Of a DNA stretch of 64,000 bases, positions 8,054 to 35,020 are shown one piece after another. The position numbers and the translations under genes are program-made. The notes beneath the pieces are model-generated. The model did no database searches and was not told the DNA's origin. It saw nothing but the letters and a program-made list of their open reading frames with translations. Origin of the DNA: an uncultured Eubacteriales bacterium (GTDB lineage Bacteria; Bacillota; Clostridia; Oscillospirales; Acutalibacteraceae); assembly GCA_951801675.1 (NCBI GenBank), contig CATONX010000002.1:129038-193037 (forward strand), in the 5' to 3' direction. How positions within the stretch are numbered: the first letter of the stretch is position 1; each line of letters starts with the position of its first letter.

Positions 8054-10609
8054 TTAAATCAGCCCCAGTTCCCTGGCTTTCAAAATAGCGTCCATGGCGT
8101 TATTCACGCCCAGCTTGCGGTAGGCCACGGCGGTGTGGCTCTTAATGGTGGGCAGAGACAGACCCGTTTGCTCACAGATTTCCGCGTTTTTGTAGCCCTT
8201 TGAGAGCATGCCAAGCACCATGGCCTGCTGCTTGGAGAGCTTCACCGGCTTGTCAGAGCGCATGAGGCTGGCCGTTACACCCTTGTGTTTGCGGGAAAAG
8301 GCGTGGCTGGCAAGGGTCACTTCCAGCACAAATTCCCGTTTGAGCGGGCCTTTGTAGCCCTCCTTGTCCACTTTGGCGGTCACCCGCTTGAGAATGGACA
8401 GAACAGAAGCCCCCTCGTCCGCTACAATCCGGATAAAGCCGTAGGGCTGTAAGAGTATAAGCGCTGTTTCCAGTGTGGAAATGGCGCCTTTTTTGTCCCC
8501 CTGGGCCCATTTGAGCGCCGCACACAGCGTAAGTGCCTCCGCTTCATCCAGCGGTCGGTTGAGGTTTTTCCCGAACTCCTCGAGCAGGCCGAGAATTCGC
8601 GCCGCCTGTTTTGTCTCACCCAGTACCAGATAGGCTCTGGCCGTAGTGAAGTGCTGGAAAGAACGGAAAAACTCAATGTGGTCGGTTTGGGTTACATAAT
8701 AGCGGTCGAGCCATTGGCGCGCGGCGGCTGCGTCGCCGTCCAACAACCGTAGCTTTGTTCGGTAAGCCGTCAGGTTGGGAAGGAAATACTGGGCGTGAGC
8801 ATCCACAAACCCGCAAAGCGCCTCCATGGCTTCCGCCGCTTCCCGGGTGCGTCCAAGCTGCCACAGGATGCTGTGCTGCAACACCATGACGCAGATGCGG
8901 CCGTCCGGTTTGCTTTCTTCGTTCAACAGGCTGAAGACCTCATTGTTCTGCGTGAGTGCCGCTTCCAGATGGCTGCGCTCGTATTCGAAGCAGACCAGGA
9001 TACCCGGACGCAGGTAAACCCACTCCGGGCCTAACAGCGGCGCGAAGGTATGGTCGATCTTCGACAGAATCCCCGGGTCCAGGGCGATTTCCGAGTAATC
9101 CCGGTTGCTGCGGTGCATGTAGGGCAGGTTGTGGGTAAAGGACGCAATATTAGTCGCAAGGCCCGCCTGGGTAAAGCTTTTGAGGGCTTTTCCAAACAGA
9201 TAATAGAGTTTTACCTGGGTTTTCAGGCTTTTGCGGTAATCCACGTGAAAAGCCAGCATGGCAAACTCCACAAACTCGTTGCCCGCGGCGGCGATGCGCG
9301 GCAGGTTACGGATAATCGCGTCCATGTGTTTGGCGTACTGCTCGTGGCGGCTGGTGAGGTAATAGTACCAGGCGTAAAGAACGTGTAGCACCGGCGCTTC
9401 CCGGGAGGCACGGGCGGACAGCTCTTGGGCAAAAAAGCCCCGCAGAAAGTCGGCGTAATCGGCTACGCCGTCCTTATGGCCCCGAAACAGAAAGAGAAAC
9501 AGGAAGGTGTCTATGCCCTTGTAGTCGCCGCTTTGAAACCAGAAGCGCAGGGCGCGGGTATAGTCGCTGTGATCGCGGTAGTAGTTGGCAGCCTCCTTGT
9601 AAAGCCCGCTCAGCTTCATTTCCGCCGCCGCTTTTTCCCGCAGAAAATCCTGGAACAGGTGGTGGTAGCGGTAGGTGTCCTCCCGCAGGCGGCTCAAAAA
9701 GCTGTTGGTGCGACTCAAATCTTCCATGACCGCCCGCGCATCCTCCCGGCCGGAGAGCCGCCTGGCCAGTTCCGGGTCGAACTCGTCCACGATGGAGGTT
9801 TTCAGGCAGAAATCCCGAAGGGCTGGATCCCAGCCGTTCCACAAGTGCTGCTCAAAGTAGGCTGAAAAGATGTAATGCCCGCCGCCCAGTTCGATCTGTC
9901 CGGACTTGGCGATGGCGTTGACGCCGATAGCCCAGCCGTCGGTCGCCATGTAGGCGAACTTCGATTCCTCCGGGGTAAGAAACCGCCCGAGGCTCCCGAA
10001 ATACCGCCGGATTTCGTCCTCGGTAAAGCGCAGCTGCTCGGGTGTGATGAGCTGGACCTCTTCGTCCTTAATCAGGAGCCGAAATTCCTCCGGAATGTCC
10101 CTGCGGGACAAAATCAGCGCGGCGAAGGAGCGGGGCAGCCGCCGGAGCACCGCGGGAAGGGATTTCAATATCTCGCCGTTTTCAATCAGGTGCATGTCGT
10201 CAAGCACCAGAGCGTACCGCCCAGTCCCGGGCAACAGCTCGGAAAGCAGGCGCACCATGTGCTCCACCGGCGTGGAAGTGAAGGAGGGGCTCCGGAGGAT
10301 TTTTTTCATGTTTTCGTTTTCTGGTTGGAGGGAAAAGATGCCGGCGGCCAGCTGCTTATAGAAAACCGACGGCGAATCGTCGTATTTGTCAAGTCCCAGC
10401 CAGACCACCTTGCGGTCGCAGGAGTGGAGCCACAGCAGGGTGGATACCGTCTTGCCGCTGCCCGCCGGAGCGCCCACGTAGACAAAAGAATGCTCCGCCG
10501 CCTTGTGAAACCGGCGCAGCAACTCCTGGCGTGGGGCACATACCTCCGGAAGCTCGGCGGGGGTGAATTTTTCATTCAGAAAAAGCAGGGCGTTTTGGGT
10601 GTCAGTCAT
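8054..10609 (-). CDS. MalT/LuxR-family STAND transcriptional regulator (P-loop NTPase + helical repeats + C-terminal LuxR HTH)
   Basis: 851 aa. Walker A GAPAGSGKT; Walker B LVLDDMH; long helical/TPR-like middle region; C-terminal GerE/LuxR HTH (LSKQQAMVLGMLSKGYKNAEICEQTGLSLPTIKSHTAVAYRKLGV). Confidence 0.85.
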   Translation of the reverse strand: MTDTQNALLFLNEKFTPAELPEVCAPRQELLRRFHKAAEHSFVYVGAPAGSGKTVSTLLWLHSCDRKVVWLGLDKYDDSPSVFYKQLAAGIFSLQPENENMKKILRSPSFTSTPVEHMVRLLSELLPGTGRYALVLDDMHLIENGEILKSLPAVLRRLPRSFAALILSRRDIPEEFRLLIKDEEVQLITPEQLRFTEDEIRRYFGSLGRFLTPEESKFAYMATDGWAIGVNAIAKSGQIELGGGHYIFSAYFEQHLWNGWDPALRDFCLKTSIVDEFDPELARRLSGREDARAVMEDLSRTNSFLSRLREDTYRYHHLFQDFLREKAAAEMKLSGLYKEAANYYRDHSDYTRALRFWFQSGDYKGIDTFLFLFLFRGHKDGVADYADFLRGFFAQELSARASREAPVLHVLYAWYYYLTSRHEQYAKHMDAIIRNLPRIAAAGNEFVEFAMLAFHVDYRKSLKTQVKLYYLFGKALKSFTQAGLATNIASFTHNLPYMHRSNRDYSEIALDPGILSKIDHTFAPLLGPEWVYLRPGILVCFEYERSHLEAALTQNNEVFSLLNEESKPDGRICVMVLQHSILWQLGRTREAAEAMEALCGFVDAHAQYFLPNLTAYRTKLRLLDGDAAAARQWLDRYYVTQTDHIEFFRSFQHFTTARAYLVLGETKQAARILGLLEEFGKNLNRPLDEAEALTLCAALKWAQGDKKGAISTLETALILLQPYGFIRIVADEGASVLSILKRVTAKVDKEGYKGPLKREFVLEVTLASHAFSRKHKGVTASLMRSDKPVKLSKQQAMVLGMLSKGYKNAEICEQTGLSLPTIKSHTAVAYRKLGVNNAMDAILKARELGLI

Positions 10610-11766: not shown

Positions 11767-12762
11767 ATGAAAAGATGGATATCCGTATTGCTGTCTGTAT
11801 TGCTTTTGTTAGGCCTCACTGGTATGACCACATTGGCAGCTGATGAAAATAAGAAAAACGGCTTGAAGACACTCGAATACCGAATTAATGAGAGCGAATG
11901 GCAGACCGTTCCCGATTTCACGGAGAACGGTACAGGGAACTCTTTTTCCGTTGAGCTTCTGCGTAGTGCACAAATACACAATGCGGTAGTAGAAATCCGG
12001 GCAACACCCATGGATCCGGAAAATAAAGTGGTCTCATATGACGGCCAAAATAAAATAACCATAGCAGATGGAGTTGTCCAGGGATCGCAGAGCCTTTCGG
12101 TTTTTGTCCGTGACAAAGACAAGGCGGACGAAATAGGGGCTGGTATCATGACGGTCGTCTCGTTCCTGGTTTCCCCCATCGATCCCGCTATCATTGAGTT
12201 TGCGGACAAGAACTTGTCCATTGTCTTTGACGGCGAGCGCTCTGGTACACAAAGCTACAACAGCCAAGGGGACATCAAGTTCATGCAGAACGAATCGGTA
12301 ATGCTGACAGTCAATAACACAGGTCATGATGATAAATCGCCCGCGGTAGGGGATGCGCGATGGAAATTCCTTGGGTTTACCATTGACGGAGAAGTTGTTA
12401 TGCCGTGGGATGCAAACTGCATGAGCTGGACTTTTCAGACCGATCATCTGAGTATTGGAAAGCACGAAATTGTAATTCGCTTTGTCCTGGAGACGTACCA
12501 AGAGGTTGTTGCAGACGAATCGGTTCCTGCAGATACACCTGCGTCATTTGCTTGGACGGAATATCTTGTGCAGGACGGCGGCTATGTGTTTACACATAAT
12601 ATTTGCGAAACCTTTACCGTTGAACAGCTGCCGGAGGAACCGGATGATACCGATAACCCGCCCACCGGTGCCGATGACGTTTTTGGGATTGTTCTTCTCT
12701 CCCTTCTTTCGGGCGCCGGAGCCTGTATGCTGCTCATCCGAAAGAGAAGATGTGTATCGTAA
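11767..12762 (+). CDS. Cell-wall-anchored surface protein with an NPPTG sorting signal
   Basis: Signal peptide MKRWISVLLSVLLLLGLTGMTTLAA. C-terminal NPPTG, then a hydrophobic stretch and an RKRR tail. GGAGG RBS. GC is lower than in the neighbouring genes. Confidence 0.75.
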   Translation: MKRWISVLLSVLLLLGLTGMTTLAADENKKNGLKTLEYRINESEWQTVPDFTENGTGNSFSVELLRSAQIHNAVVEIRATPMDPENKVVSYDGQNKITIADGVVQGSQSLSVFVRDKDKADEIGAGIMTVVSFLVSPIDPAIIEFADKNLSIVFDGERSGTQSYNSQGDIKFMQNESVMLTVNNTGHDDKSPAVGDARWKFLGFTIDGEVVMPWDANCMSWTFQTDHLSIGKHEIVIRFVLETYQEVVADESVPADTPASFAWTEYLVQDGGYVFTHNICETFTVEQLPEEPDDTDNPPTGADDVFGIVLLSLLSGAGACMLLIRKRRCVS

Positions 12763-12894
12763 AAATGCAAGAACCAGACAATAACAAAGGACTTGGCAGA
12801 TATGTGACGATTGTCCTGCTGCTGAGCATAGCGCTTGAGGCAGGCGGATGACAAGATATTGAGAGACAAGGGTAGACGTAAAGAAAAGAATGTA

Positions 12895-12930
12895 ATGGGG
12901 AGCCAACAATTGTTGGCTCCCCATTTTTAT
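12895..12930 (+). terminator. Rho-independent terminator after the surface-protein gene
   Basis: GGGGAGCCAACA / TGTTGGCTCCCC stem followed by ATTTTTAT. Confidence 0.6.
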
Positions 12931-13069: not shown

Positions 13070-13963
13070 CTATATTTGGTGATGAAATCCATAGCTTTTC
13101 CTTTCAGAGAGAACCTGTCTTGCAAACGCTGTTTCCTGATCCAACAAATCGACAAATCGACTGCATGCCTCATCAAAGGGCGTACAGTTGCCCTTTAAGA
13201 GCGCCGCCTTATAGAACCCGTTTTTTACCGCCAGCCAGTCCTCATAATAAGATTTTCTGAAAAACAAAGAGGCGCTTTCCACAGGAATTTTCCTTTGTTC
13301 TAAAAAATGCCGGTATAAATAGCGCCCGGTCAGCAACGCATCTGCAAACTTAGCGGGAAGCAGAGCGTTTTCCCCCGGCTCCTGAATGCAGGCGTTTGCC
13401 TGCGCGAGAAAATGACGGGAAGTTTTGGAATGGACCTTCACTACTTCCTGCGCCTGGGTGAGAAGCGCCTCGCTTTCCTCCCGATAAGGAGTAGAGATTT
13501 CCACTGTATGAATGGGAATGAGAACGAATGCGTGGACCACCAGTTCCTGGGCGGTCAGCGTTTGGTCATGAAAGCCGTAAGTAGGATCGAAGCAGAGCTG
13601 AGGATCCGCCGGCTTCTTTTGGACGATAAAATAGTGAGGACCGTGCAAAAGCTGATAGAGCGGGGTCCATGGAATTTGACAGGCATCCATGCCGGCGATT
13701 ATGTATCCACTGCTGGGGGTATTCATCCAGGCAATTTCCCGCTCCTCCTTTGTAACGCAAGGCGGCGCCAATACCATGCCCATGGATTCCAACGTTTCTG
13801 GCAGCCGCCGGGATAGAAACACCTGGCAAATCGGGTCATAGCGCAGATTGCCTTCCGCCCAAAGACGGGAAAAAGCACTGATATAGTCGAGCCCGAAAAA
13901 GTTTGCCAGCGTAATCAAACAGTCATGATAACAGTTGAGACCTTGAAAGTGGATAAGATTCAC
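13070..13963 (-). CDS. BtrH-like protein (BtrH_N papain/C39-like fold acyltransferase family)
   Basis: 297 aa, about the same length as BtrH. N-terminal Cys motif GLNCYHDCLITLANFFG. GTG start overlaps the ligase stop (GTGA). Family call is from pattern memory, not from a search. Confidence 0.65.
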   Translation of the reverse strand: MNLIHFQGLNCYHDCLITLANFFGLDYISAFSRLWAEGNLRYDPICQVFLSRRLPETLESMGMVLAPPCVTKEEREIAWMNTPSSGYIIAGMDACQIPWTPLYQLLHGPHYFIVQKKPADPQLCFDPTYGFHDQTLTAQELVVHAFVLIPIHTVEISTPYREESEALLTQAQEVVKVHSKTSRHFLAQANACIQEPGENALLPAKFADALLTGRYLYRHFLEQRKIPVESASLFFRKSYYEDWLAVKNGFYKAALLKGNCTPFDEACSRFVDLLDQETAFARQVLSERKSYGFHHQI

Positions 13964-15438
13964 AGCTGGGCATCCTCCTGCGCACGCCTGATCTTCCCCG
14001 TCGCTGTTTTTTCCAATTTCTCAACCAGCCGAATGCGGCGGGGACATTTATAATCCGCCAAATGCGTGGCACACCAGTGCTGGATGGACGCAGGCGTCAC
14101 CTCAGCAGTGGCCGCAACCACGTCGGCACCGACCCATTCGGTCCCCGGTTGATCCTCAAACCCGTACACCATACAGTCTGTTACAAGCGGACAGCTCTGC
14201 AGGCAGGTTTCCACTTCCTCTGGATAAACGTTGAACCCCCGGACGAGCAACATGTTTTTCTTTCGCCCGTAGATATAGAGATAGCCGTCGTTGTCAAAGT
14301 ATCCGATGTCCCCGGTGTGAAGCCAGCCGTCCCGTAGGATTTCCTGCGTGGCGGCTTCATCCCCATAGTAGCCCAGCATGACATTGGGACCCTGTGCTAC
14401 GATTTCGCCTGGCCGATTTGGCTCACTGGTTCGCCCCGCTTGCGTTTCCAGGCAAACCTTTACGCCGGGCAGAGGGACACCAACAGAACCCAGCTTATCG
14501 GGCGGCAGGCTTCGAAAGGGTTGCGCGATGAGGGGAGAAGCCTCGGTCATGCCGTAGCCGGACCAGAAGCGTATGCTGGGGAAAGCAGTGGACAGCCGCT
14601 CCAACGTGCCGTCCGGCACCTTGCTCCCGCCGAAGCCGAAATACCGCAGGGAGGAGATGTCGTATGGGATGGGGTGATTGCGTGTCCGGTCCATCAGAAC
14701 CGCCACAAGAGTCCCTCCGTCGTAGTGGCTGATTCCGTGCTCCTGCGCCGCACGGTAAAGAGTGTCCAACGTAAACCCCTGCGCCATCGGGAAAAGCGGA
14801 AATCCCCGCACAACACAGGAAAAGGAGACGAGCAGCCCGTAAATAGAACAAAGGGGTGTGCCAAGAGCATAGCGTACGGCAGGATCCTGGTATTTTTCGT
14901 ACCCCATATGCCTTAGGTAAGCATTGACATTGAAAGACACGTTGGCTTCAGAAAGCTGGACCAGCTTCGCGCGGCCCGTGGTTCCCGACGAAGCGAGCAA
15001 CAGCATGGGCGCGTTGGGGTCGGCCGCCTGTATGTCCGGCCAAGGCGGAGAAAGCGGAGGCAGCGTTTCCATATACCGGATCTGCGGCGTGCTTGCACTG
15101 CCTTCCACGGCCTTTTGGCAAAGCGGGCCCAGGGCTTCGCAGGTAATCACCGTTTGTACCGGCGCGCGCCCCAGCAAGTCGGACAGTTCGCCTGCGGTCA
15201 AATGGACGCTGAGAGGGAACGCGATCCATCCGGCCTGCACAATGGCAAACAGGGCGCAAAGAAAATCGCTGCCGTCGGCGAGAAGAATCGCGGCAACCGG
15301 CCGGTCTTTTTCCCGAGGTAAGACGGCTTGCAGCGCCGCAGCACGCTCTGCCAGTTGCGCGTAAGTCACCGGATGTTCCTCGCCCAGAACAGCGGGAAGG
15401 TCTTGGTTCCATCTTGCCAGCAAAGCGTCTCTAATCAT
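13960..15438 (-). CDS. ANL-superfamily adenylate-forming enzyme (acyl-AMP / acyl-carrier-protein ligase)
   Basis: Core motifs SSGTTGRAK, GYGMTE, TGD, GRKKNMLLVRGFNVYPEEVE and KTATGKIRR. ATG overlaps the ACP stop (ATGATTAG). Confidence 0.85.
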   Translation of the reverse strand: MIRDALLARWNQDLPAVLGEEHPVTYAQLAERAAALQAVLPREKDRPVAAILLADGSDFLCALFAIVQAGWIAFPLSVHLTAGELSDLLGRAPVQTVITCEALGPLCQKAVEGSASTPQIRYMETLPPLSPPWPDIQAADPNAPMLLLASSGTTGRAKLVQLSEANVSFNVNAYLRHMGYEKYQDPAVRYALGTPLCSIYGLLVSFSCVVRGFPLFPMAQGFTLDTLYRAAQEHGISHYDGGTLVAVLMDRTRNHPIPYDISSLRYFGFGGSKVPDGTLERLSTAFPSIRFWSGYGMTEASPLIAQPFRSLPPDKLGSVGVPLPGVKVCLETQAGRTSEPNRPGEIVAQGPNVMLGYYGDEAATQEILRDGWLHTGDIGYFDNDGYLYIYGRKKNMLLVRGFNVYPEEVETCLQSCPLVTDCMVYGFEDQPGTEWVGADVVAATAEVTPASIQHWCATHLADYKCPRRIRLVEKLEKTATGKIRRAQEDAQL

Positions 15439-15679
15439 GCAGCTCTCTCTCCTTTACTTTGGCTTCCACAAGGGCGATGAGCTGCCCTACCAGAAGACAG
15501 TCTTGCATCTGTGAAAGTGCAATCGTAATATGGTATCGCTCTTCGATAGCCAGAAGCATGCTTACAAACGAGAGGGAATCGAGGTGCAGGTCCTTGTACA
15601 GGTCGGTGGCTTCCGTGACCGGCACGCGCAGCACGTTTTCCTGGTCGATCAGTTGTACAATGCTATCCTTTACGGACAT
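15431..15679 (-). CDS. Acyl/peptidyl carrier protein
   Basis: 82 aa with the phosphopantetheine-attachment motif LHLDSLSFV. I chose the ATG at 15679 (GGAG 8 nt upstream) over the ORF-track GTG at 15688. Confidence 0.75.
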   Translation of the reverse strand: MSVKDSIVQLIDQENVLRVPVTEATDLYKDLHLDSLSFVSMLLAIEERYHITIALSQMQDCLLVGQLIALVEAKVKERELHD

Positions 15680-15699
15680 GACCGTCACTCCATTTCAGA

Positions 15700-15750
15700 A
15701 TAAAAAGGGGACCGCGGAATCTGGATGAAGCGAAAGCGCAGGTCCCCTTA
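15700..15750 (-). terminator. Weak or leaky stem-loop between the collagen-like gene and the ACP gene
   Basis: 7-bp stem GGGGACC/GGTCCCC (15707-15713 / 15741-15747) with a 27-nt loop, then a T-run on the minus strand. Only about 20 nt separate it from the ACP RBS. Confidence 0.4.
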
Positions 15751-15758
15751 TGCTTTCG

Positions 15759-16958
15759 TTACTCGATATAAATACCGCCGCTGATGGATGCAGGCAGGTA
15801 TTGTGACGGCTGCGAACCTTCCGCCGTGATGCCCATGATGATGGTTACCAGTGTTCCGGCCGGGAGCGGGATATTCAGACCCGTTATGCTGGCTCTGCGC
15901 AGGGTGTATTTCGGGATTTCCTCCGTACCCGTATACGGGGGAAAATACACGATGCTGTCTGCAAGTACGGTAAAGGTCAGGGTTTCGGTGGTTGCGATGG
16001 CCAGGCACATGAATGGACGTATGGTGACGTCTTCTTCCAGATACAGTGCCTGCCGGTTGGCGAATACGCCGTAGATGTTTTGCACCGTTCCATCAATAGG
16101 CATGACGAAAGAAGATGGGTACGAGCTGCTATCATCAATGGTAATGGTTCCGGACGCCCATTCGCCGGGGTCCAAAGACGTATAGTATCCATTGTCGCCG
16201 CCAAAGCCAGCGTAAGCGATTTGAGACGGTTCGCCGGTGGAATCCGTGCTAAGCGTTACGCCCGACGAACTTTGATTGGAATAGGAAAACGCGATGGTAG
16301 CGGCAACGGGGCCTTGGATTCCCTGCGGGCCAGGTATGCCCTGGATACCCTGTTCTCCCTGCGGGCCAGGCACGCCCTGGATACCTTGTTCCCCTTGCGG
16401 GCCGGGTTCGCCCTGTAGACCCTGTGGGCCCTGTACACCCTGCGGCCCTTGTGGACCCGGTTCGCCCTGTGGACCCTGCACCCCCGGTACCCCTTGAAGC
16501 CCGGTAGCGCCGGTCGCTCCGGTGGGCCCCTGCGGCCCGGCCGCACCCGTTACCCCTCTGGGAATGCGGAAATTCAGAAGACCTTGATTTGGGTCTCCTA
16601 CATCGATGACACTGGCTTCTTCCTCTGGTTCTCCTGTGGTCGTTGCGTTAATGAATAATCCACGCCCTGCTGCCCCATCCGCGCCCGCAGGCCCTTGCTC
16701 GCCCTGAGGACCCTGAGGGCCAGGAAATCCCTGCGGTCCCGCAGGCCCTTGCTCGCCCTGGGGCCCCTGCGGGCCGGGAGATCCCTGCGGCCCCGCAGGC
16801 CCTTGTTCGCCTTGGGGTCCCTGCGGCCCCGTCGGACCAGGTGTGCCGGAGCCGCACGGTGGAAAGCAGGGTGGCTGGGGTGGCCGGCACGCACACCAAT
16901 GACCAAAATCAGGCTGACAGGCGTCCCCAAAGCCTTCAGGCCAATCTCTATGAAACAT
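15759..16958 (-). CDS. Collagen-like (G-X-Y) surface/exosporium-type glycoprotein with a BclB/BclA-like C-terminal globular domain
   Basis: Two G-X-Y blocks and a Cys-rich N-terminus. The C-terminal ~180 aa resemble BclB-related domains ([16 protein letters not shown]...ISGGIYIE). Start MFHRDW at 16958 has AGGAGG 7 nt upstream. Confidence 0.85.
16308..16556 (-). repeat. Collagen G-X-Y coding repeat block 2
   Basis: Encodes [16 protein letters not shown]...[32 protein letters not shown], including a 36-bp tandem unit. Confidence 0.8.
16662..16853 (-). repeat. Collagen G-X-Y coding repeat block 1 (about three 54-bp tandem units)
   Basis: Encodes [16 protein letters not shown](S/F)P repeated about three times. 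Confidence 0.8.
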
Positions 16959-17008
16959 AAAATTACCTCCTGTTTTGGGAAGAGAGCATTTCAAATAGTA
17001 TCCCGATC

Positions 17009-17036
17009 CATCTTATGAGGTTTCCGAAGGAATCGT
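17009..17036 (-). promoter_or_regulatory. Candidate mother-cell (SigK-like) promoter for the collagen-like gene
   Basis: Minus strand reads AC, 17 nt, then CATAAGATG, compared with the B. subtilis SigK consensus AC-N16-17-CATAnnnTA. It lies about 50 nt upstream of the ATG. This is a weak, pattern-only call. Confidence 0.3.
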
Positions 17037-17123: not shown

Positions 17124-17513
17124 ATGGCTGCAAAAGGATCGCTATTGGCACACATTTTTACTTCAGATTCCAATATTCCCGTAGAAGAGGCCACGGTTAC
17201 GGTTACGCAGACCCAGCCGGACGGGCTTATCGAACTGCTCGCCGTTCGGATTACCGATGAAAGCGGCTTAACCAAGCCCCTGGAAGTTCCCACACCCGAA
17301 AAAGCCGTCAGTCAAGCACCTTCTGAGGAGCAGCCCTTCTCTTTGGTGCAGGTAACAGCGGAGCATCCGCTATACGAGCGGATTGTGGTAAAGGATGTGC
17401 AAATATTCCCCGACACCGTGTCCATACAGAATATGCAGTTGATTCCGTTAGCGGAAGCGCCGGAGGTTTTCAACCAGACCGAGGTCTTTCCCATACCGCC
17501 CCAAAACCTGTAA
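17124..17513 (+). CDS. Carboxypeptidase-regulatory-like (Ig-like beta-sandwich) domain protein
   Basis: 129 aa; GGGAGG RBS. The motif AHIFTSDSNIPVEEATVTV is typical of CarboxypepD_reg-like domains. Confidence 0.6.
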   Translation: MAAKGSLLAHIFTSDSNIPVEEATVTVTQTQPDGLIELLAVRITDESGLTKPLEVPTPEKAVSQAPSEEQPFSLVQVTAEHPLYERIVVKDVQIFPDTVSIQNMQLIPLAEAPEVFNQTEVFPIPPQNL

Positions 17514-17525
17514 GGAGGTGCCAAC

Positions 17526-18935
17526 TTGCCGATCGTCACACCGTATGTACCCCAGTCCATCGTCGTGCATTTAGGCGCGCCGGCCAGCAGCGCCGCCAAC
17601 GTTACAGTGTCCTTTGCTGACTATATCAAAAACGTTGCTTCCAGTGAAATCTATCCCACATGGAACGAGAGCGCCATGCGGGCGAATATTCTGGCGCAGG
17701 TTTCCTACGCATTAAACCGCGTCTATACGGAATTCTACCGCAGCCGGGGGTATGCGTTTGATATTACCAATTCTACGGCTTATGACCAGGCGTTTGTCAA
17801 CGGGCGGAATATTTTCGAAGACATCAGCCAGCTGGTGGACGACCTGTTCAACGATTACATTCGCCGCCAGGGCTTCGTAGAGCCCTTGTTTGCTTCCTTC
17901 TGCAACGGCACGACGGTTACCTGTGAGGGTTTGAGCCAATGGGGTTCCCAGAGCCTAGCGGAGCAAGGCTACAATTCCGTGCAGATTTTAAGGAACTATT
18001 ACGGGGACAACATCGAGCTCGTAATTGACGCGCCCATTCAAAACGTTACGACCTCTTATCCGGGCGTGCCTTTGCGGGAAGGAAACGCCGGCCCGAACGT
18101 CATCGTCATTCAAAGTTCTCTCAACCGCATCTCGCAGAATTATCCCGCGATTCCAAAGGTCTACCCGGTGGACGGCATATTCGGCCCGGGTACCGCGGCG
18201 GCGGTACGCAAATTTCAGCAAGTGTTCGGCCTTACGGTTGACGGAATCGTCGGCAAGGCCACATGGTATCGGATTGTGCAGCTATACGTGGGCATCCGGC
18301 GGCTGGCGGAGCTCAATTCGGAAGGCCAGACATTTACAGGCATCTCTTGGGCCTATCCGGATGCGATCGTGGAGGGGGACAGCGGTCAAAAAGTATCCCA
18401 TTTGCAGTATATGCTGGCGGTCCTTGCTGAATTTAACCCCCAGATCCCGCCCGTTGAGGTCACCGGTGAGTTCGACGAAGCCACCAAAAATGCGGTGGTT
18501 TCCTTTCAGCGATGGGCCGGGCTGCCTCAGAACGGAGAGGTTGGAGCGGATGCCTGGGACGCCATTTACGATGCGTATGCAGGAGTCGCCGAAACGGTTC
18601 TCAGCCGGGGCGAGCTCTTTCCCTATCAGAGCAACGTTACTCCTGCCGATTCGGTTCGAGAGCTGCAAGAACAGCTTGCCGACGTGGCCGGAGAAACGCC
18701 GGGCATGATTTGTCCGAAAATTACCGGGCGGTATGACGCCGCAACGAGGCGCGCGATATTGCAGTTCCAGAGGTATTGCAGGCTTCCGGCCAATGGACGC
18801 GTCGACACCGCCACCAAGGACGCGCTGGCAGACGATGTGGTAATTCTGCGGTATTCCCGCACGTCCCGGTTTACCCAATATCCGGGCCGAAGCCTTGCTT
18901 ACGGCATGACCGATCACACAGAGGAGGTGGGGTGA
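17526..18935 (+). CDS. Peptidoglycan-binding protein: SpoIID/LytB-like N-terminal domain plus three PG_binding_1 repeats
   Basis: TTG start with AGGAGG upstream. Three repeats of the type DGIFGPGTAAAVRKFQQVFGLTVDGIVGKATW. The N-terminal domain assignment is tentative. Confidence 0.8.
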   Translation: MPIVTPYVPQSIVVHLGAPASSAANVTVSFADYIKNVASSEIYPTWNESAMRANILAQVSYALNRVYTEFYRSRGYAFDITNSTAYDQAFVNGRNIFEDISQLVDDLFNDYIRRQGFVEPLFASFCNGTTVTCEGLSQWGSQSLAEQGYNSVQILRNYYGDNIELVIDAPIQNVTTSYPGVPLREGNAGPNVIVIQSSLNRISQNYPAIPKVYPVDGIFGPGTAAAVRKFQQVFGLTVDGIVGKATWYRIVQLYVGIRRLAELNSEGQTFTGISWAYPDAIVEGDSGQKVSHLQYMLAVLAEFNPQIPPVEVTGEFDEATKNAVVSFQRWAGLPQNGEVGADAWDAIYDAYAGVAETVLSRGELFPYQSNVTPADSVRELQEQLADVAGETPGMICPKITGRYDAATRRAILQFQRYCRLPANGRVDTATKDALADDVVILRYSRTSRFTQYPGRSLAYGMTDHTEEVG

Positions 18936-19507
18936 TGGCAATCGTCAATGAGCCGATCGGCCAGCCGATCCGAAGCCTGCAGATCATGCTCAGGGCCATC
19001 GCCCAATACGACGGGGATGTTCTCCCGGTGATCCCGGACGGGATTTATTCCAATGATACGGTGGCATCGGTTTCCTCTTTCCAGAAGCGGCATGGGCTGC
19101 CTGTTACGGGGGAAACCGATCTTCAGACCTGGTATGCGGTGGCTGCCGCGTACCGGCAGGCATTGGTGGAAATCGGTCCGGCACAGCCGGTAAATATCAT
19201 TCTGCAAAGAGGCCAAGTCATCCGAGCGGGAGAAGTAAACGAACACCTGTACATGATGCATGGAATGCTGCGCTGTATCGGCTGCTATTATCCATCCATG
19301 CCCCGGGTTTTATGCAACAATGTACACGATGAGCAGTCCGTCGCGGCCATCCGCTGGCTGCAGACCCGTGCCGGCATAGAGCCTACCGGCGAGATTACCA
19401 GGCTGACCTGGAAGCACCTGTCCCTTCTTTACCGGATTACCGTAGGAGACGGCACTGTCCCGGCCCCCGCTGCACCCAACTTGCAAAATGACGTTGTCAA
19501 AGAGTAA
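18935..19507 (+). CDS. Peptidoglycan-binding protein (two PG_binding_1 repeats)
   Basis: Start MAIVNEP at 18935 overlaps the upstream TGA (TGATG). Repeat motif: DGIYSNDTVASVSSFQKRHGLPVTGETDLQTW. The ORF-track start at 18776 lies inside the preceding gene. Confidence 0.75.
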   Translation: MAIVNEPIGQPIRSLQIMLRAIAQYDGDVLPVIPDGIYSNDTVASVSSFQKRHGLPVTGETDLQTWYAVAAAYRQALVEIGPAQPVNIILQRGQVIRAGEVNEHLYMMHGMLRCIGCYYPSMPRVLCNNVHDEQSVAAIRWLQTRAGIEPTGEITRLTWKHLSLLYRITVGDGTVPAPAAPNLQNDVVKE

Positions 19508-20400: not shown

Positions 20401-20437
20401 AAAAGGCCGGGGAATCATTCCCCGGCCTTTTCTGTTT
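20401..20437. terminator. Bidirectional terminator shared by the small ORF and the XRE gene
   Basis: GGCCGGGGAA / TTCCCCGGCC stem flanked by AAAA and TTTT. It overlaps the last codons of the XRE gene. Confidence 0.6.
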
Positions 20438-20804
20438 GCGTTTGAAGACCGCTTATGAATTTCTGCACGGCTGCTTTTTCCTTTGCGTCCAACTGCCAAT
20501 AGGCCTGCAAAAGCCCTTTGATGAAAGAATCGTCCGACGTCTGTATTTCTGTTAGGATCTCAATGAGCTGTGCGTCTTTAGAAAGCTCTTGAAACATCTC
20601 CCCCTGGCCGGTGCGCAGCCAGAGCTCGGAAACATGAAACTCCCGGCAGATATCCGCCACCGTCCGGTCGCTGGGATTTCGCTTTCCCGATACCAGCTGG
20701 GAAACATAGGATTGGTCGATATTGAGCCGCTGCGCGAACTGGACCTTTTTGATCCCGACCGCGCCAAGCAGCAAACCGATTCTTTTACCGATGGTATTTT
20801 CCAT
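20415..20804 (-). CDS. XRE-family (cI-like) phage repressor
   Basis: N-terminal HTH_3 motif: VQFAQRLNIDQSYVSQLVSGKRNPSDRTVADICREFHVSELWL. It faces away from the structural genes. Confidence 0.85.
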   Translation of the reverse strand: MENTIGKRIGLLLGAVGIKKVQFAQRLNIDQSYVSQLVSGKRNPSDRTVADICREFHVSELWLRTGQGEMFQELSKDAQLIEILTEIQTSDDSFIKGLLQAYWQLDAKEKAAVQKFISGLQTQTEKAGE

Positions 20805-24226: not shown

Positions 24227-24661
24227 ATGGCTTATTTGATTAAACGTACGTCGCATTTTACCGATGAATTGAAGTTCGCCACCGATTCCGGCGAGGTTGT
24301 GGCCTGCATTCCCGTGGACCTGGACATTGACCGGATCGCCCAGGACCTGTACAAGCGGTATTTTGACTTAATCCATGTTCAGCAGGAAACAGCGAAGCTG
24401 CGGGTACAGGAGCAAACCCCCGAGGCGCTGGCCGCCCAGATGGAAAAGCTTAATAACACGGTGGCGTCCTTGTACAATCTGCTCTTCGGCGAGGAGAACA
24501 CGTCCCGTATGCTTGCATTTTTCGATGGAAATTACACGGAGCTGCTTGCCCAGACCTATCCCTACCTGGTGGATGTGGTAATCCCCGCCATCCGGGAACG
24601 GGCAGACGCCAGGAAAAAGGAGCTCCTTGCAAAACAGCGGAAAAGCAAGTGGCGTCGGTAA
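24227..24661 (+). CDS. Phage tail assembly chaperone (gpG-like)
   Basis: 144 aa, acidic and helical, directly upstream of a -1-frame overlapping ORF and the tape measure gene. Confidence 0.55.
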   Translation: MAYLIKRTSHFTDELKFATDSGEVVACIPVDLDIDRIAQDLYKRYFDLIHVQQETAKLRVQEQTPEALAAQMEKLNNTVASLYNLLFGEENTSRMLAFFDGNYTELLAQTYPYLVDVVIPAIRERADARKKELLAKQRKSKWRR

Positions 24662-25233
24662 CGGTTCTCGGGAAACGATTCCGGCTGAATCTCGCGTACG
24701 ACGCCGTTCTTTCCTGCATCCAGGCGGGCCGGGACCCGGTGCTGGGCGATCTGGACAAGCTGGAGCTTTGCCTGGCGATCTTAGTCAAAAACAGGCGGGC
24801 ATTGCGCAGGCTGGGCCCTCAGGACAAAAGTAAGCTATACGAGGAAATCAGCTCGAAGCATCTCAATGTGATTTCCCGCAAGGCGCCCGGAAAGCAGGCT
24901 CAGCCGGTGTCCGATTTTGTGGAGGATTTCGATTTGATCTACAGCAGCTTCCGGTTCGCTTACGGTATCGATCTCAACCGGGAGCGAGGAAAGCTTTTAT
25001 GGAAGGAATTCTGCTGGCTCTTTGAAGGCCTGCCTCCCGGATGCAAAATGCGGGAGGTTATGGAAATTCGGGCCCGGAAGATTCCGTCTCCCACCAAATA
25101 CAACCAGGAAGAAATCCGGCAGCTCACCGAGCTCAAACAGTATTGGATGCTTCCTGCGTTTGGCCCGGGCAATTACCAGGAACAGTTGGAAGGTCTCTTT
25201 GAGGCGCTGTCCAGATTGGCGGTGAAAGCATGA
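24649..25233 (+). CDS. Phage Gp15-family / gpT-like tail chaperone
   Basis: 194 aa in the -1 frame relative to the preceding ORF, with a 13-nt overlap and a GTG start. The motif ...DFDLIYSSFRFAYGIDL... resembles the Gp15 family. Confidence 0.55.
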   Translation: MASVTVLGKRFRLNLAYDAVLSCIQAGRDPVLGDLDKLELCLAILVKNRRALRRLGPQDKSKLYEEISSKHLNVISRKAPGKQAQPVSDFVEDFDLIYSSFRFAYGIDLNRERGKLLWKEFCWLFEGLPPGCKMREVMEIRARKIPSPTKYNQEEIRQLTELKQYWMLPAFGPGNYQEQLEGLFEALSRLAVKA

Positions 25234-25370
25234 CGGAAATTCGCTGCCCTTACTGCGGGTGGCTGCTGCTCAAGGCGATTTGCGTCAACGGCGAGATCAA
25301 ATGCAAGCGATGTAAGCATACTGTTCGAATTATCTATCCAAAAGACAGAGTGAGCCGCACCGAAGAGTAG
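25230..25370 (+). CDS. Com-like zinc-ribbon small protein (46 aa; not in the ORF track)
   Basis: Own translation: MTEIRCPYCGWLLLKAICVNGEIKCKRCKHTVRIIYPKDRVSRTEE. It has two CxxC pairs, and its ATG overlaps the upstream TGA (ATGA). Confidence 0.5.
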   Translation: MTEIRCPYCGWLLLKAICVNGEIKCKRCKHTVRIIYPKDRVSRTEE

Positions 25371-25406
25371 CGAGCCATACCTGCAAGAGAAGGCAGGTGA
25401 AGGCAT

Positions 25407-27434
25407 TTGGCAGACAACGAAATCAAGTATCAAGCTCATATTAACGGAGAAGAAATTCTCATTCAAGTAAGAACGATCAACAAAAACATAGAACAGAGTG
25501 CAAAAGAGACCAGCCAAAAACTTGAGAACAATGCCAAGAAAACGGGGAAGACGCTGGTCGAGCAAACAAAAAAGACGGCGAAAGAAGTCAGCCAGAGCTA
25601 TCAGGACGAGGGCGCAAAGGTTGAGAAGGAAGCCGGAAAAACCAGCGGTAAGCTGGCCAAAATGGCAGTCGAAGCGAAGGATACGATTATTTCCAAAGCA
25701 AAAGAAGCAACGGGTATTACCGGAAATGTCTTTCTCGATGTGGGCAATGCAATGCTTGGCGTTGGTAAAATAGCGGTGGATATTGGCAAAAAGGCTGTGG
25801 AATCCGCTATAAATATGGATAAGGCGATGAATCAATTTCAAGCGTCCACCGGCAAGAGCGCAGAGGAGATGGACCGGTATCAGGATGTCTTGGAAAAGAT
25901 TTATGCCAACAACTACGGCAAGGATTTCGAAGAGATTGCCAACGGTATGGCACAGGTCACCAAAGGCATGGGGGATCTGCCGGACGAACAACTGCAGTCC
26001 ATTACCGAATCGGCATTTGCATTGCGCGATACCTTTCAATACGATCTGAATGATTCCATTGACGCGGCCAGTGCCATGGTCAAGCAGTTCGGCATTGACG
26101 GCGACCAGGCAATGAACCTGCTTGCGGCCGGCGCTCAAAACGGACTGGACAGTTCAGGCGAGCTGCTCGGGAACATCACCCAATACACCGAGCAGTTTGC
26201 AAAGGCGGGTTTCAGCGCCGACGACATGTTCAAAATCATGCAGGCGGGTGCGGATTCCGGCGCGTTTAGCCTGGAGACGGTGGCAGGCGCGCTTGACAAA
26301 ATGTCCGCCCGGATTGCCTCCGGTTCCGGGGAGGCGGCAGAAGGCTTTGCCGCTCTGGGCCTCAACGCGGACGATATGGCCGCCAAATTTGCCGCCGGCG
26401 GGGAGTCGGCGAAAGAAGCGTTCGACCAGACCATTGAGGCACTGGCCGGTATGGAAGACCCCCTTGCCCAGAGCCAGGCGGGGACAGCTCTCTTTGGCGA
26501 GGCATGGACGGAAATGGGTCCGGATGTGGTGGAGCAGCTGGCAAACATCCAGGCCGGCGCCTACGACACAGCCGACGCTATGGGTGTGATCAAAGAAGCA
26601 AAATCCGACGATTTGTCGTCCATGTTCGAGAAATTGCAGCGTCAGGTAGAACTGCTGCTGCTTCCTTTGGGAGAGGCACTGCTTCCTGTGCTGGAAAAGC
26701 TGCTTGGGGCTTGCCTGCCGCTGGTTGAGACCTTGGGGGATATACTGGCGCCTATTCTTGAGCAATTTGGCGAGATCATTGCCGTACTGATGATACCGCT
26801 CACCTCGCTGGTCGACATCATTGCCGATATTCTGCCTCCGATCATTGTCGCTCTGTCAGGCATTATGAAAAACGTGCTGGGCGTGGCGTTTGACTATATC
26901 GGAAATATGATCGGCAACGTGATGCAGGTGTTTCAGGGGATCATCGATTTTATTACCGGTGTTTTCACAGGAAACTGGGAACAGGCGTGGAACGGCATCA
27001 TCGACATCTTCAAGGGGATTTTTAATATCATCCCCACCATCATAGAGGCAATTTTAAACGGCGGTATTGGGATTATCAACGGTCTCATCGACGGCATCAA
27101 TTTCATCACCGGCGCGATCGGCATTCCTCCCATTCCGCACATTCCAAGCGTCCAGATTCCCCGTCTGAAAATCGGTCTCGACTATGTCCCAAGCGACTTT
27201 TTCCCGGCGTTTCTCGACGAGGGCGAGCGGGTGCTGACCAAGGAGGAAAACGTGCGCTTTAACGCTTTGGGCGGCCTGCCGGGCCTGGAAGCGGCCCTGT
27301 CCGGCTACGGAGTAGCCGGCGCGAGCCCTTCCTTCGCCATTTCCCTGGTGGGCGACGTGACCATGGACGGGCGCCGGGTAGGCAGCGTGGTGCTGCAGAA
27401 TATCGACAGCGTGGTGAGAAGCAATGGCGGTTGA
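25407..27434 (+). CDS. Phage tail tape measure protein
   Basis: 675 aa; helical Ala/Gly/Lys-rich N-terminus; a TP901-type core (NMDKAMNQFQASTGKSAEEM...); a hydrophobic Gly/Ile-rich C-terminal segment. Confidence 0.85.
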   Translation: MADNEIKYQAHINGEEILIQVRTINKNIEQSAKETSQKLENNAKKTGKTLVEQTKKTAKEVSQSYQDEGAKVEKEAGKTSGKLAKMAVEAKDTIISKAKEATGITGNVFLDVGNAMLGVGKIAVDIGKKAVESAINMDKAMNQFQASTGKSAEEMDRYQDVLEKIYANNYGKDFEEIANGMAQVTKGMGDLPDEQLQSITESAFALRDTFQYDLNDSIDAASAMVKQFGIDGDQAMNLLAAGAQNGLDSSGELLGNITQYTEQFAKAGFSADDMFKIMQAGADSGAFSLETVAGALDKMSARIASGSGEAAEGFAALGLNADDMAAKFAAGGESAKEAFDQTIEALAGMEDPLAQSQAGTALFGEAWTEMGPDVVEQLANIQAGAYDTADAMGVIKEAKSDDLSSMFEKLQRQVELLLLPLGEALLPVLEKLLGACLPLVETLGDILAPILEQFGEIIAVLMIPLTSLVDIIADILPPIIVALSGIMKNVLGVAFDYIGNMIGNVMQVFQGIIDFITGVFTGNWEQAWNGIIDIFKGIFNIIPTIIEAILNGGIGIINGLIDGINFITGAIGIPPIPHIPSVQIPRLKIGLDYVPSDFFPAFLDEGERVLTKEENVRFNALGGLPGLEAALSGYGVAGASPSFAISLVGDVTMDGRRVGSVVLQNIDSVVRSNGG

Positions 27435-28902
27435 ATGCTATATCAATAAAATACGCTATCCACTGGTGGATACGGTGGAGCTGTGCGACCATGCGGCGGC
27501 GACCTCGGAAAGCAGCATCCGGGTGGACATCCGGGGGCTGCCCGAGCCCCAGGCGCTGGATGTGGTTTACTTGTTCCGGGATGGCAGGCTTTTGTTCGGC
27601 GGGCTGTGCGGGATTCCCAGTTCCCCCGCCTGGACAAGTGCGTACACGCCCCAGCACTATGATCTGACCGTGTCCGGCATGAATAATCTGCTGACCCACC
27701 GCTATGTCAACAAGGCCTGGAGGGACAGCAGCCTCTACGACATTGTCATGGAGGTCTACGAGAGCATTCTGGCGCAGGATAACATCGCGCTGGGGGAAGT
27801 GTCCCAGGCGCTGACCGATTTGCCCCGGCAGGTCTATATCGCGCCGGATATGACGGCCTATGACGTATTAAACGAACTGGCGGGGCTGGTGGGGGCCGTG
27901 TGGGACATCAAGGCAAACCCGGATTGGACGGTATCCGATTACCTGTCCGGTTCGCAGGCCAATCCCTTCCGGTTTTCCTTCTGCTTAAAGGACGATTTTC
28001 CGGTGGTAACGGCGGATAAGCGCAACATATGCAGCCTGCAAAAAAATGTGGAAAGCTATGCGCTGCGTACGGTGCAGGTGGTAAACGGCGCCACCGGCGT
28101 GACGGATCCTCAGCAGGAAACCGTGGTCTACCATGCCGACGACGGCGTGGTTACGACGGTCTGGCCGGTCTATGACATGCCGTCCATCATCTACGGATCG
28201 CCTCCGGTTCAAGCGAAGGTCGGCGTTGCCGGGATTGACGACGAGGATGACACCGTGCAGTTCCTTTTTTCCTATAATTCCGCGGAAATCAAGGTCAACG
28301 ATGATGCAGTTGACCCGGTGCCGGACGGCGCCTTGGTAAGGATTTCGTACCGCGGGCTGTTCCAGCTGCGGGTGCGGGTGCGCAACAATCAAATGATTGA
28401 GGACATCGCCGCCCGCTCCGGGGTGTCCGGCATGCTTGAGGAAGTCGAGGTGGATGAGCGCATCACCGACGCCGCATCGCTGATCGATTATGCGACTACG
28501 GCGCTTTATAACAATTCCCAGCCGGAAACCACATTGGAAATCACCACCCGGAGCATGGAAGGAACCGAGCCCTTTACCATCTGGCGCTGCCAATTTCCGG
28601 AGTGCCGCATAAACGACGATTATGTAGTGGTGGAACGTACGGTTACCATTACGGGGGGCAGCCTGGACGTTGGGCTCAAATGCAAGGACCGGGGCTTTCT
28701 GACCGCCTACGGGAAAACCTTTTATAAACAGTATAAGGACGCGGCGGCCGGCATCCGGGAGGATGAAGTGGTCATTGCGTCCGACACCATCAGCACGGCG
28801 GTGACAGCCGCCGCGAAATTTGCGGCCAAAGCTCCGCTTGTCTGTTATGCGGGCGACGGACAGCCTTGGCTGTGGGGAGGGGATCACTACGCCCAATATT
28901 GA
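27424..28902 (+). CDS. Phage distal tail/baseplate protein (hypothetical)
   Basis: 492 aa, overlapping the tape-measure stop. Call is based on position; I recognise no specific family. Confidence 0.5.
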   Translation: MAVECYINKIRYPLVDTVELCDHAAATSESSIRVDIRGLPEPQALDVVYLFRDGRLLFGGLCGIPSSPAWTSAYTPQHYDLTVSGMNNLLTHRYVNKAWRDSSLYDIVMEVYESILAQDNIALGEVSQALTDLPRQVYIAPDMTAYDVLNELAGLVGAVWDIKANPDWTVSDYLSGSQANPFRFSFCLKDDFPVVTADKRNICSLQKNVESYALRTVQVVNGATGVTDPQQETVVYHADDGVVTTVWPVYDMPSIIYGSPPVQAKVGVAGIDDEDDTVQFLFSYNSAEIKVNDDAVDPVPDGALVRISYRGLFQLRVRVRNNQMIEDIAARSGVSGMLEEVEVDERITDAASLIDYATTALYNNSQPETTLEITTRSMEGTEPFTIWRCQFPECRINDDYVVVERTVTITGGSLDVGLKCKDRGFLTAYGKTFYKQYKDAAAGIREDEVVIASDTISTAVTAAAKFAAKAPLVCYAGDGQPWLWGGDHYAQY

Positions 28903-31174: not shown

Positions 31175-31175
31175 T

Positions 31176-31622: not shown

Positions 31623-31638
31623 AGCAAGAGGTGACAAT

Positions 31639-32270: not shown

Positions 32271-32274
32271 TTAG

Positions 32275-32307
32275 GAAGGCCAAGCGCAAAACTTGCGCTT
32301 GGCCTTC
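32275..32307 (+). terminator. Terminator at the right end of the prophage remnant
   Basis: 15-bp stem GAAGGCCAAGCGCAA / TTGCGCTTGGCCTTC. Confidence 0.5.
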
Positions 32308-34267: not shown

Positions 34268-34281
34268 AGGAGGGAATTGCC

Positions 34282-34956: not shown

Positions 34957-34966
34957 CCGGCTCAGT

Positions 34967-35020
34967 GCAATAGAAAAGAAGCCCGCGTAAACGAATTTAC
35001 GCGGGCTTCTTTTCTATTGC
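34967..35020. terminator. Strong bidirectional terminator (25-bp perfect stem)
   Basis: GCAATAGAAAAGAAGCCCGCGTAAA-CGAA-TTTACGCGGGCTTCTTTTCTATTGC. The right arm contains the stop codon of the ybaK-like gene. Confidence 0.75.

Follow-up and report, generated by a model that had tools for sequence, protein, structure and literature searches.

Why should the enzymes of a carrier-protein-dependent acylation pathway be encoded directly behind a collagen-like protein? The question is raised by a locus in an uncultured Eubacteriales bacterium of the family Acutalibacteraceae, at positions 13070-16958 of a 64,000-nucleotide stretch of DNA (GenBank assembly GCA_951801675.1, contig CATONX010000002.1, positions 129,038 to 193,037 of the forward strand); the whole stretch was analyzed and is called the window below. 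In the order of transcription, the locus encodes a collagen-like protein, a stand-alone acyl carrier protein (ACP), an adenylating ligase of the ANL superfamily and a transferase-like protein. Our best explanation, which as a whole we favor with modest confidence, is that the four genes form one self-contained operon of endospore-forming Clostridia, in which a thiotemplated acylation is linked to the co-encoded collagen-like fiber of the spore. The genes and the first ribosome-binding site are as follows:

13070-13963, minus strand: transferase-like protein of 297 amino acids; open reading frame (ORF) with a GTGA overlap with the ligase stop
13960-15438, minus strand: ANL-superfamily adenylating ligase of 492 amino acids; ORF with Pfam matches, and an 8-nt overlap with the ACP stop
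15431-15679, minus strand: stand-alone ACP; the ORF listing begins at GTG 15688; contains the DSL phosphopantetheine serine
15759-16958, minus strand: collagen-like gene, 399 amino acids; the ORF listing runs to 16994; Pfam Collagen match
16966-16971, minus strand: AGGAGG ribosome-binding site of the collagen-like gene; AGGAGG or GGAGG is equally spaced in homologous loci

All four ORFs are present in the ORF listing of the window and point in one direction, as stated in a preliminary description of the locus made from the sequence and its ORFs. The likeliest start of the ACP is ATG 15679 (GGAG-N8-ATG), giving a protein of 82 amino acids and a gap of 79 nt to the collagen gene, in agreement with the earlier estimate of about 80 nt. 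Given the AGGAGG at 16966-16971, ATG 16958 is the likeliest start of the collagen gene, and it coincides with the end coordinate proposed before. The ACP and ligase genes overlap in ATGATTAG and the ligase and transferase genes in GTGA, and to these overlaps, both noted earlier, we add an AGGAGG ribosome-binding site upstream of the transferase gene. Judged by these junctions, the ACP, ligase and transferase genes are translationally coupled.

Is this arrangement more than an accident of one genome? A scan for the transferase in one genome per GTDB species yielded 22 loci. In 20 of the 20 loci with upstream DNA, a collagen-like gene comes first and the ACP, ligase and transferase genes follow; the other two of the 22 are cut at a contig end. 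An independent metagenome scan gave the same order in 12/12 loci with enough upstream DNA. Among these genome and metagenome loci there was no intact cassette without a collagen-like gene, so that the co-occurrence which the preliminary description had proposed to look for proved to be strict. The gene arrangement is far beyond chance. Identity of the C-terminal domain of the collagen-like protein across the genome loci ranges from 38 to 77% and falls in step with enzyme identity. When all ORFs within +/-10 kb were clustered, only the four module genes recurred, the remaining clusters being antisense shadow ORFs of the same four genes; no glycosyltransferase, sugar, phosphopantetheinyl transferase or exporter gene was conserved in these neighborhoods, and host families and neighboring genes vary among the loci. 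The hosts named in the records are nearly all endospore-forming Firmicutes, with cultured carriers that include Faecalicatena contorta, Extibacter muris, Lentihominibacter hominis and Clostridium sp. MCC353. One module contig (L017, JAWZDV010000072.1) is labeled as a Bacteroides thetaiotaomicron metagenome-assembled genome, which is probably a binning error because Bacteroides is non-sporulating and all other hosts are Firmicutes.

Searching from the side of the collagen-like protein led to the same partners. The C-terminal domain retrieved 105 relatives at E<=1e-3, 28 of them at <=1e-30, from 1.84 billion representatives. Its commonest member (P0069, 681 contigs, Acutalibacteraceae) carries the cassette in a wholly different neighborhood, with its collagen repeats hidden by an assembly gap. 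The cassette is likewise present behind diverged members (P0082, P0096 and P0083), and partial evidence for it exists for P0081, where the contig is cut within the ligase, and P0093, where an ACP-like ORF comes next; a tier-2 relative, P0119, lacks it. In all, the search by the C-terminal domain led to five full loci with the four genes in this order. P0083 has a different, globular N-terminal domain and has kept the cassette, and a JGI metagenome contig (L033, 1017-4384) encodes three tandem collagen-like paralogues with the same C-terminal domain family, followed by one cassette. It is thus the C-terminal domain that the cassette tracks, irrespective of how long the collagen region is or whether the N-terminus is Cys-rich.

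In five members of the domain family (P0083, P0084, P0091, P0101 and P0102) a cassette-type C-terminal domain is fused to a globular N-terminal domain of ~140 amino acids (…ISYDSTTGELTL…GRYVINWW…) through only a short collagen linker, giving a two-headed protein. The ~140-residue domain is found in tier-2 relatives as well, P0119 and P0125 among them.

Outside the module, transferase copies occurred only as truncated remnants. In L052 (3740-5693) the transferase gene is cut at about residue 40, with loss of Cys11 as a consequence, and adjoins a transposase-like ORF; in L057 (2292-2519) a C-terminal fragment alone is left. At another locus (L025, 8768-11342) two insertion sequence (rve) copies lie between the collagen gene and the ACP gene. 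Read from their sequences, these three loci represent natural decay of the module in some lineages.

What kind of enzyme is the transferase-like protein? The 297-residue protein matches no Pfam family at E<=10 and no NCBIfam model, a PHROGs search gave no match, and a sequence-profile search of the PDB returned only spurious de novo helical proteins, leaving CtaG undetected. Clustering at 90% identity divides its family into 55 clusters, none of them named or assigned a Pfam domain; where a source is named, it mostly belongs to the Lachnospiraceae or their relatives. The preliminary description had called the protein a BtrH-like transferase with a BtrH_N-like Cys motif. At the level of domain models this did not hold: the window transferase does not reach the gathering score of BtrH_N (PF14399) and has no match to it at E<=10. 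Three of 23 relatives match BtrH_N weakly (best E 1.1e-4) and three match DUF1839 (best 1.2e-4); DUF6005 (PF19468) is absent among the four Pfam families matched by any of the 23. What did hold is the cysteine of the NCYHDC motif, which is invariant and part of a Cys-His-Asp triad. Cys11 (NCYHDC), His110 (GPHYF) and Asp126 (CFDPTY) are invariant in the 23 sequences and remain so in homologues at 28-32% identity, in which W35, E37, W99, Y111, C124, H178, R214, W243 and K252 are also unchanged.

Structure prediction pointed to a known fold. The AlphaFold2 model of the transferase is confident (pLDDT 91.2, pTM 0.87) and consists of an alpha/beta N-domain of strands and helices (residues 11-153) followed by five long helices (166-290). 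Foldseek matched the model over its full length with CtaG (3e-8), AziU3 (3e-7, TMq 0.67) and CcbD (1e-5), the CcbD structures including complexes with the CcbZ carrier-protein domain. CtaG is a papain-like ligase with the triad Cys11/His128/Asp144, an N-domain of residues 1-181 and a five-helix C-domain, and works by a ping-pong mechanism via an acyl-enzyme (PMC12865890). BtrH, AsbE and MllDE have been named as its structural homologues, and the class that includes BtrH and AsbE consists of carrier-protein-dependent amide-forming ligases (PMC12865890). The spacing from His to Asp is 16 residues in both CtaG and the window transferase. Because of the two-domain fold matches and the invariant Cys11, His110 and Asp126, we assign the 297-residue protein, on its modeled structure and catalytic residues, to the CtaG/BtrH/AsbE/CcbD class of papain-like Cys-His-Asp transacylases, and in this sense the earlier comparison with BtrH was right.

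The same search brought up a different possibility, namely that the protein is a C39-like protease which cleaves the collagen-like protein, for instance to trim off a targeting segment at its N-terminus, with the ACP and ligase unrelated or accessory. The N-domain does resemble C39 peptidase domains (PCAT1 and ComA, E 0.004-0.05), and a Cys-His-Asp triad could hydrolyze. The C39 matches are confined to the N-domain, however, whereas the best matches span both domains and are ligases; the ACP, ligase and transferase are coupled and never separated, and the variable N-termini of the collagen-like proteins show no conserved cleavage motif. We consider proteolysis very improbable.

The two other enzymes agree with an assignment to acyl transfer. 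The ligase matches the Pfam families AMP-binding (2.7e-51, 175 bits against a cutoff of 29.9) and AMP-binding_C (4.9e-15, 56.6 bits against 24.5), and the ANL core motifs A3, A5, A7 and A8 and the A10 lysine (SSGTTG..K, GYGMTE, TGD, GRKK and the GK lysine) are conserved in 20 module ligase orthologues. The ligase is split into two ORFs in L005, L016 and L019, possibly by frameshifts or assembly errors. The ACP, found in all module loci, matches PP-binding (2e-7, 31.6 bits against 20.8), with the DSL serine in LHLDSLSF; it has weak matches to the ACP, DltC and AsbD models of NCBIfam, and its nearest PDB relatives are ACPs of the fatty acid synthase type. The serine motif and the full set of ANL motifs had been read correctly in the preliminary description, as had the nature of the trio as a carrier-protein acyl-transfer cassette. 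By analogy with the characterized enzymes, and with the ACP and ligase translationally coupled to the transferase in every locus, the window transferase may use a carrier-bound acyl donor and form an amide via an acyl-enzyme.

Which acid would be activated? Because the ligase stays under every equivalog cutoff of NCBIfam and its nearest PDB relatives (~1e-48) span feruloyl- and fatty-acyl-CoA synthetases, oxalate-CoA ligase and the o-succinylbenzoate (OSB) ligase MenE, its substrate is not assignable from these matches. The A4 position offers a hint. Acyl-CoA ligases have His at this position, and amino-acid-activating A domains have an Asp that binds the alpha-amino group. In the 20 orthologues A4 is S, A or G, neither Asp nor His, which argues weakly against an alpha-amino acid; the substrate is probably another carboxylic acid.

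A trio of this kind is known from other settings. In petrobactin biosynthesis, AsbC, AsbD and AsbE are the adenylating enzyme, the aryl carrier protein and the ligase (PMC11317620), so that the Bacillus anthracis group uses the same logic of an AMP-binding enzyme, a stand-alone carrier and a papain-like Cys-His-Asp transferase. The weak match of the window ACP to the AsbD model is a further point of likeness. The window transferase, however, does not match DUF6005, the family of AsbE. The petrobactin cluster also contains the siderophore synthetases AsbA and AsbB (NIS synthetases of the IucA/IucC type) and the 3,4-dihydroxybenzoate (DHB) synthase AsbF, which are absent from the module, and its gene order differs from ACP-ligase-transferase. 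The partners of the Asb enzymes are siderophore genes, whereas the partner in the module is a structural collagen-like gene. CtaG, from closthioamide biosynthesis, is the best structural match and shares the bipartite architecture and the Cys at residue 11, but at ~14% sequence identity; it joins two carrier-bound substrates, whereas the module encodes one carrier protein, and it belongs to an antibiotic cluster rather than a spore-type operon.

Amino-sugar acylation offers a closer chemical parallel. BtrH with BtrI (butirosin) and CcbD with the carrier domain CcbZ-PCP (celesticetin, a lincosamide) carry out carrier-dependent N-acylation of amino sugars by a cysteine-protease-like enzyme, and BtrH and CcbD are the direct precedent for the idea of glycan N-acylation. 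BtrI is loaded by an ATP-grasp enzyme, unlike the ANL ligase of the module; the window transferase fails the BtrH_N model, although a few of its relatives touch it, and no aminoglycoside, lincosamide or sugar genes lie near the module. DltA and DltC, which serve teichoic acid D-alanylation, are likewise an ANL enzyme and a dedicated carrier that decorate a surface polymer, and the window ACP is weakly DltC-like. Transfer in that system uses the membrane proteins DltB and DltD, in contrast to the soluble papain-like enzyme of the module, and its substrate is D-alanine, whereas the A4 residue of the module ligase argues against an alpha-amino acid.

On the side of the structural gene, the exosporium glycoproteins BclA and BclB of Bacillus, with their anthrose/rhamnose glycan genes, and BclA1-3 of C. 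difficile are likewise collagen-like GXY fiber proteins that lack a signal peptide. They end in a globular all-beta domain, a fold that a low-confidence model also gives for the window protein, and the sigma-K-type promoter of bclA1-3 has a putative counterpart in a motif upstream of the window gene. The window protein differs in its Cys-rich N-terminus and its sub-threshold match to the family model. In Bacillus, anthrose is acylated by soluble enzymes of the ant operon and not by a carrier-protein system, and we know of no dedicated enzyme cassette downstream of bclA genes. Full-text literature searches with exosporium or collagen-like terms together with carrier-protein or AMP-binding terms returned nothing relevant on such coupling, and the word 'collagen' is absent from PMC12865890; a paper on a BclA-BxpB isopeptide (PMC3104494) is marked as retracted and was not used. 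The preliminary description knew of no described system with these genes together. The enzyme trio is already known, and what appears to be undescribed in the literature searched is its strict coupling to a collagen-like structural gene.

When would the operon be expressed? Two further elements, one in front of the collagen gene and one behind it, bear on this point:

17010-17036, minus strand: sigma-K-type promoter motif AC-N17-CATAAGAT, a consensus match that begins 78 nt upstream of the collagen gene ATG
15699-15749, minus strand: intercistronic terminator-like hairpin with a 9-bp GC-rich stem, extra pairs inside a 27-nt loop, then TTTTTATT

Of 13 loci, 10 have the pattern AC-N16/17-CATAnnnT at a distance of 67-78 nt ahead of the collagen start codon, and the other three have it elsewhere upstream. 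Its background frequency is 0.11 per kb over ~1 Mb, so that ~0.003 would be expected per 25-nt slot, and the motif is enriched ~300-fold at this fixed position. Sigma-K promoters of C. difficile have AC at -35 and a CATA-type -10 element that they share with sigma-E, and the bclA1-3 genes of this species are sigma-K dependent (PMC3789822).

Behind the collagen stop codon, the preliminary description had seen a weak stem-loop. The structure proved to be a strong, terminator-like hairpin with a perfect 9-bp stem (AAGGGGACC/GGTCCCCTT) followed by TTTTTATT, and a minimum free energy of -24.9 kcal/mol over an 86-nt region; our hairpin scanner misses loops longer than 8 nt and hence this one. Comparable hairpins (~-18 to -42 kcal/mol) stand at the same place in most of the 22 loci, conserved in structure with sequences that differ between clades. 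The hairpin is missing in L010, L019, L020 and L022, and the junctions of L010, L020 and L022 are short or overlapping. The gap between the collagen and ACP genes contains no sigma-70-like promoter, and leader and gap match no Rfam family, riboswitch or other known RNA. The earlier proposal that the enzyme genes are expressed by read-through from the collagen gene is plausible, given a gap without a promoter-like site and the hairpin-free junctions of L010, L020 and L022, although the hairpin more likely attenuates transcription; it is probably an attenuator or an mRNA-stabilizing 3' structure. In either role it would give much structural protein and little enzyme, a common balance in operons that pair a structural gene with modifying enzymes.

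How might a modification act on the collagen-like protein? The protein matches Pfam Collagen at 1.5e-24. It begins with a short segment rich in Cys (CRPPQPxCCPPCC in the close clade), continues with Gln-rich GXY repeats in two blocks separated by a 34-residue non-collagen interruption (~16557-16658), and ends in a C-terminal domain of ~175 amino acids. No signal peptide or LPXTG motif is visible in it, and the exosporium-targeting motif of Bacillus was not seen. The preliminary description had classed it as BclA/BclB-type. The C-terminal domain of the window protein matches TIGR03721 (exosporium glycoprotein BclB-related) at 1e-6 with 28.9-31.7 bits against a cutoff of 93.15; the match recurs in 17 of 19 members of the C-terminal-domain family (best 7e-8), which is in favor of the likeness, and all stay below the cutoff, which is against the label.

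The C-terminus of the protein suggested yet another use of the enzymes. The last residue is Glu or Asp in nearly all members and follows immediately on a conserved GG-hydrophobic strand (...SGG-hydrophobic x3-E/D), and the module encodes exactly the steps of activation, thioester formation and transfer; the ligase could thus activate the acidic C-terminus, and the ACP and transferase could attach the fiber, much as ubiquitin is attached, to a spore-surface amine. Against such an anchoring, the terminal strand is also present in the distant relative P0119, which has no cassette, and so looks structural, while some cassette-linked proteins end in Q, T or S, as in P0082 and in P0097, a member close to the cassette-linked L012 clade. 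We also know of no ANL enzyme that adenylates a protein C-terminus. An activated C-terminus was judged unlikely on these grounds, and we give the anchoring scheme as a whole hardly any credence.

For thiotemplated acylation linked to the fiber, we propose the following sequence of events. A sigma-K-type promoter, active late in the mother cell, would drive synthesis of the signal-peptide-less collagen-like fiber protein, and the conserved hairpin after its stop codon would let part of the transcripts reach the three coupled enzyme genes. The ANL ligase would adenylate a carboxylic acid, which is probably of another kind than an alpha-amino acid, and load it as a thioester onto the dedicated holo-ACP. 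From there the transacylase would take the acyl group onto Cys11, aided by His110 and Asp126, and pass it to an amine of, or destined for, the collagen-like protein, such as a lysine, the N-terminus or an amino sugar of a glycan. The mother-cell cytoplasm would be the site of these reactions, which would precede or accompany the assembly of the fiber on the spore surface. Chemistry that depends on ATP and ACP must be intracellular. This cytoplasmic chemistry, together with the order-preserving linkage, the shared transcription unit and the sporulation-type promoter, makes it most likely that the acyl group is destined for the collagen-like protein or its glycan.

A narrower form of this proposal is a dedicated post-translational modification, in which an enzyme of the class acylates a lysine or the N-terminus of the collagen-like spore-surface protein, or an attached glycan. 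We put this forward only tentatively, and consider it less probable than the broader proposal. Lysine is scarce in the collagen-like family (0.2-2.5%). The window protein has a single one in 399 residues, K350, which lies 50 residues from the C-terminus in an (E/Q)(I/V)PKY motif and is conserved in 16 of 17 close relatives.

Several observations weigh against the proposal, in its narrow form or as a whole. The PKY lysine was rejected as a general acceptor site, being replaced in P0081, P0082, P0083, P0096 and L022, all of which keep the cassette. In a comparison with unlinked domains, no nucleophilic residue was conserved across, or specific to, the cassette-linked C-terminal domains, and P0080, a tier-1 relative of the domain, has no cassette. 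To our knowledge, no characterized member of the enzyme class modifies a protein: the acceptor is an amino sugar for CcbD and a carrier-bound amine for CtaG. BtrH and AsbE act on free small-molecule amines (PMC12865890). By its sequence, the C-terminal domain is a distant relative of BclB and, by the curated rule, not a member of TIGR03721. Its structural model is all-beta and of low confidence (pLDDT 66, pTM 0.71), and with this model Foldseek returned jelly-roll domains of C1q, TNF-family proteins, ExsF and phage knobs only at E>=1e-3 and TM<=0.37. Late mother-cell expression of the collagen-like gene and a location on the spore surface are suggested by a promoter motif that is a consensus match only. 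Finally, the hairpin could be a full terminator, in which case the enzyme genes would need another promoter, and none was detected.

A looser rule for the acceptor, at least one Lys at one of three sites, was also tried and fails to separate linked from unlinked domains, because P0119 has such a Lys and yet no cassette. The suggestion in the preliminary description that the acceptor is the glycan or the protein itself is thus left without support from a conserved glycosyltransferase or sugar gene, or from a nucleophile common to the linked C-terminal domains.

These points bring in the alternative that the product is a small-molecule amide. Here the transferase would acylate a free amine, such as a polyamine, an amino acid or a free or nucleotide-activated amino sugar, and the link to the fiber would be functional or regulatory; the product could be a metabolite associated with the spore, a precursor of the fiber's glycan or a ligand for the C-terminal domain. 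That the collagen-like protein has no conserved acceptor residue fits this alternative well, and so does precedent: BtrH and AsbE transfer from a carrier-bound donor to a free amine, and the acceptor of CcbD is an amino sugar (PMC12865890). Gut Clostridia are also known to have fatty-acid amide pathways that consist of three stand-alone genes for a ligase, a carrier and a condensing enzyme (PMC13310621). A diffusing product, however, gives no reason for the absolute, ordered linkage to one subfamily of C-terminal domains across families, and leaves the position of the enzymes downstream of a structural gene in one transcription unit unexplained; no amine-supply, sugar or export genes are conserved nearby. 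We regard a small-molecule product as possible but rather doubtful. N-acylation of a glycan sits between the two readings: BtrH and CcbD acylate amino sugars, and no sugar genes travel with the module.

The surroundings of the operon in the window contain one further element at its downstream end:

12894-12925, strand unspecified: strong hairpin with a 14-bp palindromic stem and T-runs on both sides, from the hairpin scan

This hairpin is probably a bidirectional terminator that closes both the operon and a convergent gene (11767-12762, plus strand), which encodes a protein of 331 amino acids with a signal-like N-terminal segment, a hydrophobic C-terminal anchor and no family match. About 2.5 kb past the operon end lies a gene (8054-10609, minus strand) for an 851-residue MalT/LuxR-type regulator with AAA_16, MalT-like TPR and GerE HTH domains. 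An equally long ORF with similar N- and C-terminal sequences adjoins the transferase remnant in L052 (650-3205, minus strand); no homologue was seen in loci other than the window and L052. Divergent from the operon, at 17124-19507 on the plus strand, are genes for a 129-residue protein, a 469-residue SpoIID-like protein with three PG_binding_1 repeats and weak SleB-type matches, and a 243-residue PG_binding_1 protein. A homologue of the 469-residue protein, 50% identical, is encoded 8.5 kb from the cassette in L009 (11117-12469).

Farther away, a prophage tail module (24600-35000, plus strand; for example 25407-27434, 29301-30224 and 30221-31174) encodes tape-measure and tail-fiber proteins, and a CI-like repressor lies at 20415-20804; these prophage genes are unrelated to the cassette. 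The second collagen-like ORF of the window belongs to this tail module, is lysine-rich and lacks the BclB-related C-terminal domain. A phage origin of the operon was considered and rejected, as no relative was found on viral contigs and the second collagen-like ORF is part of the unrelated tail module.

What does the module mean for the bacteria that carry it? It suggests that many spore-forming gut Clostridia have a chemical modification, so far undescribed, with a link to their spore surface. Very little work has been done on the spore surfaces of gut commensals among the Clostridia (Lachnospiraceae, Oscillospiraceae and relatives), although these surfaces shape transmission, adhesion and immune recognition, and a compact, conserved module of this kind points to a specific and testable decoration of a collagen-like fiber. 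Papain-like thiotemplated ligases would thereby be extended from antibiotic and siderophore pathways into cell-surface biology. If the protein or its glycan is indeed acylated, this would be the first protein modification by this class of natural-product enzymes, and the spore surface would bear a new chemical decoration that is widespread among gut Clostridia.

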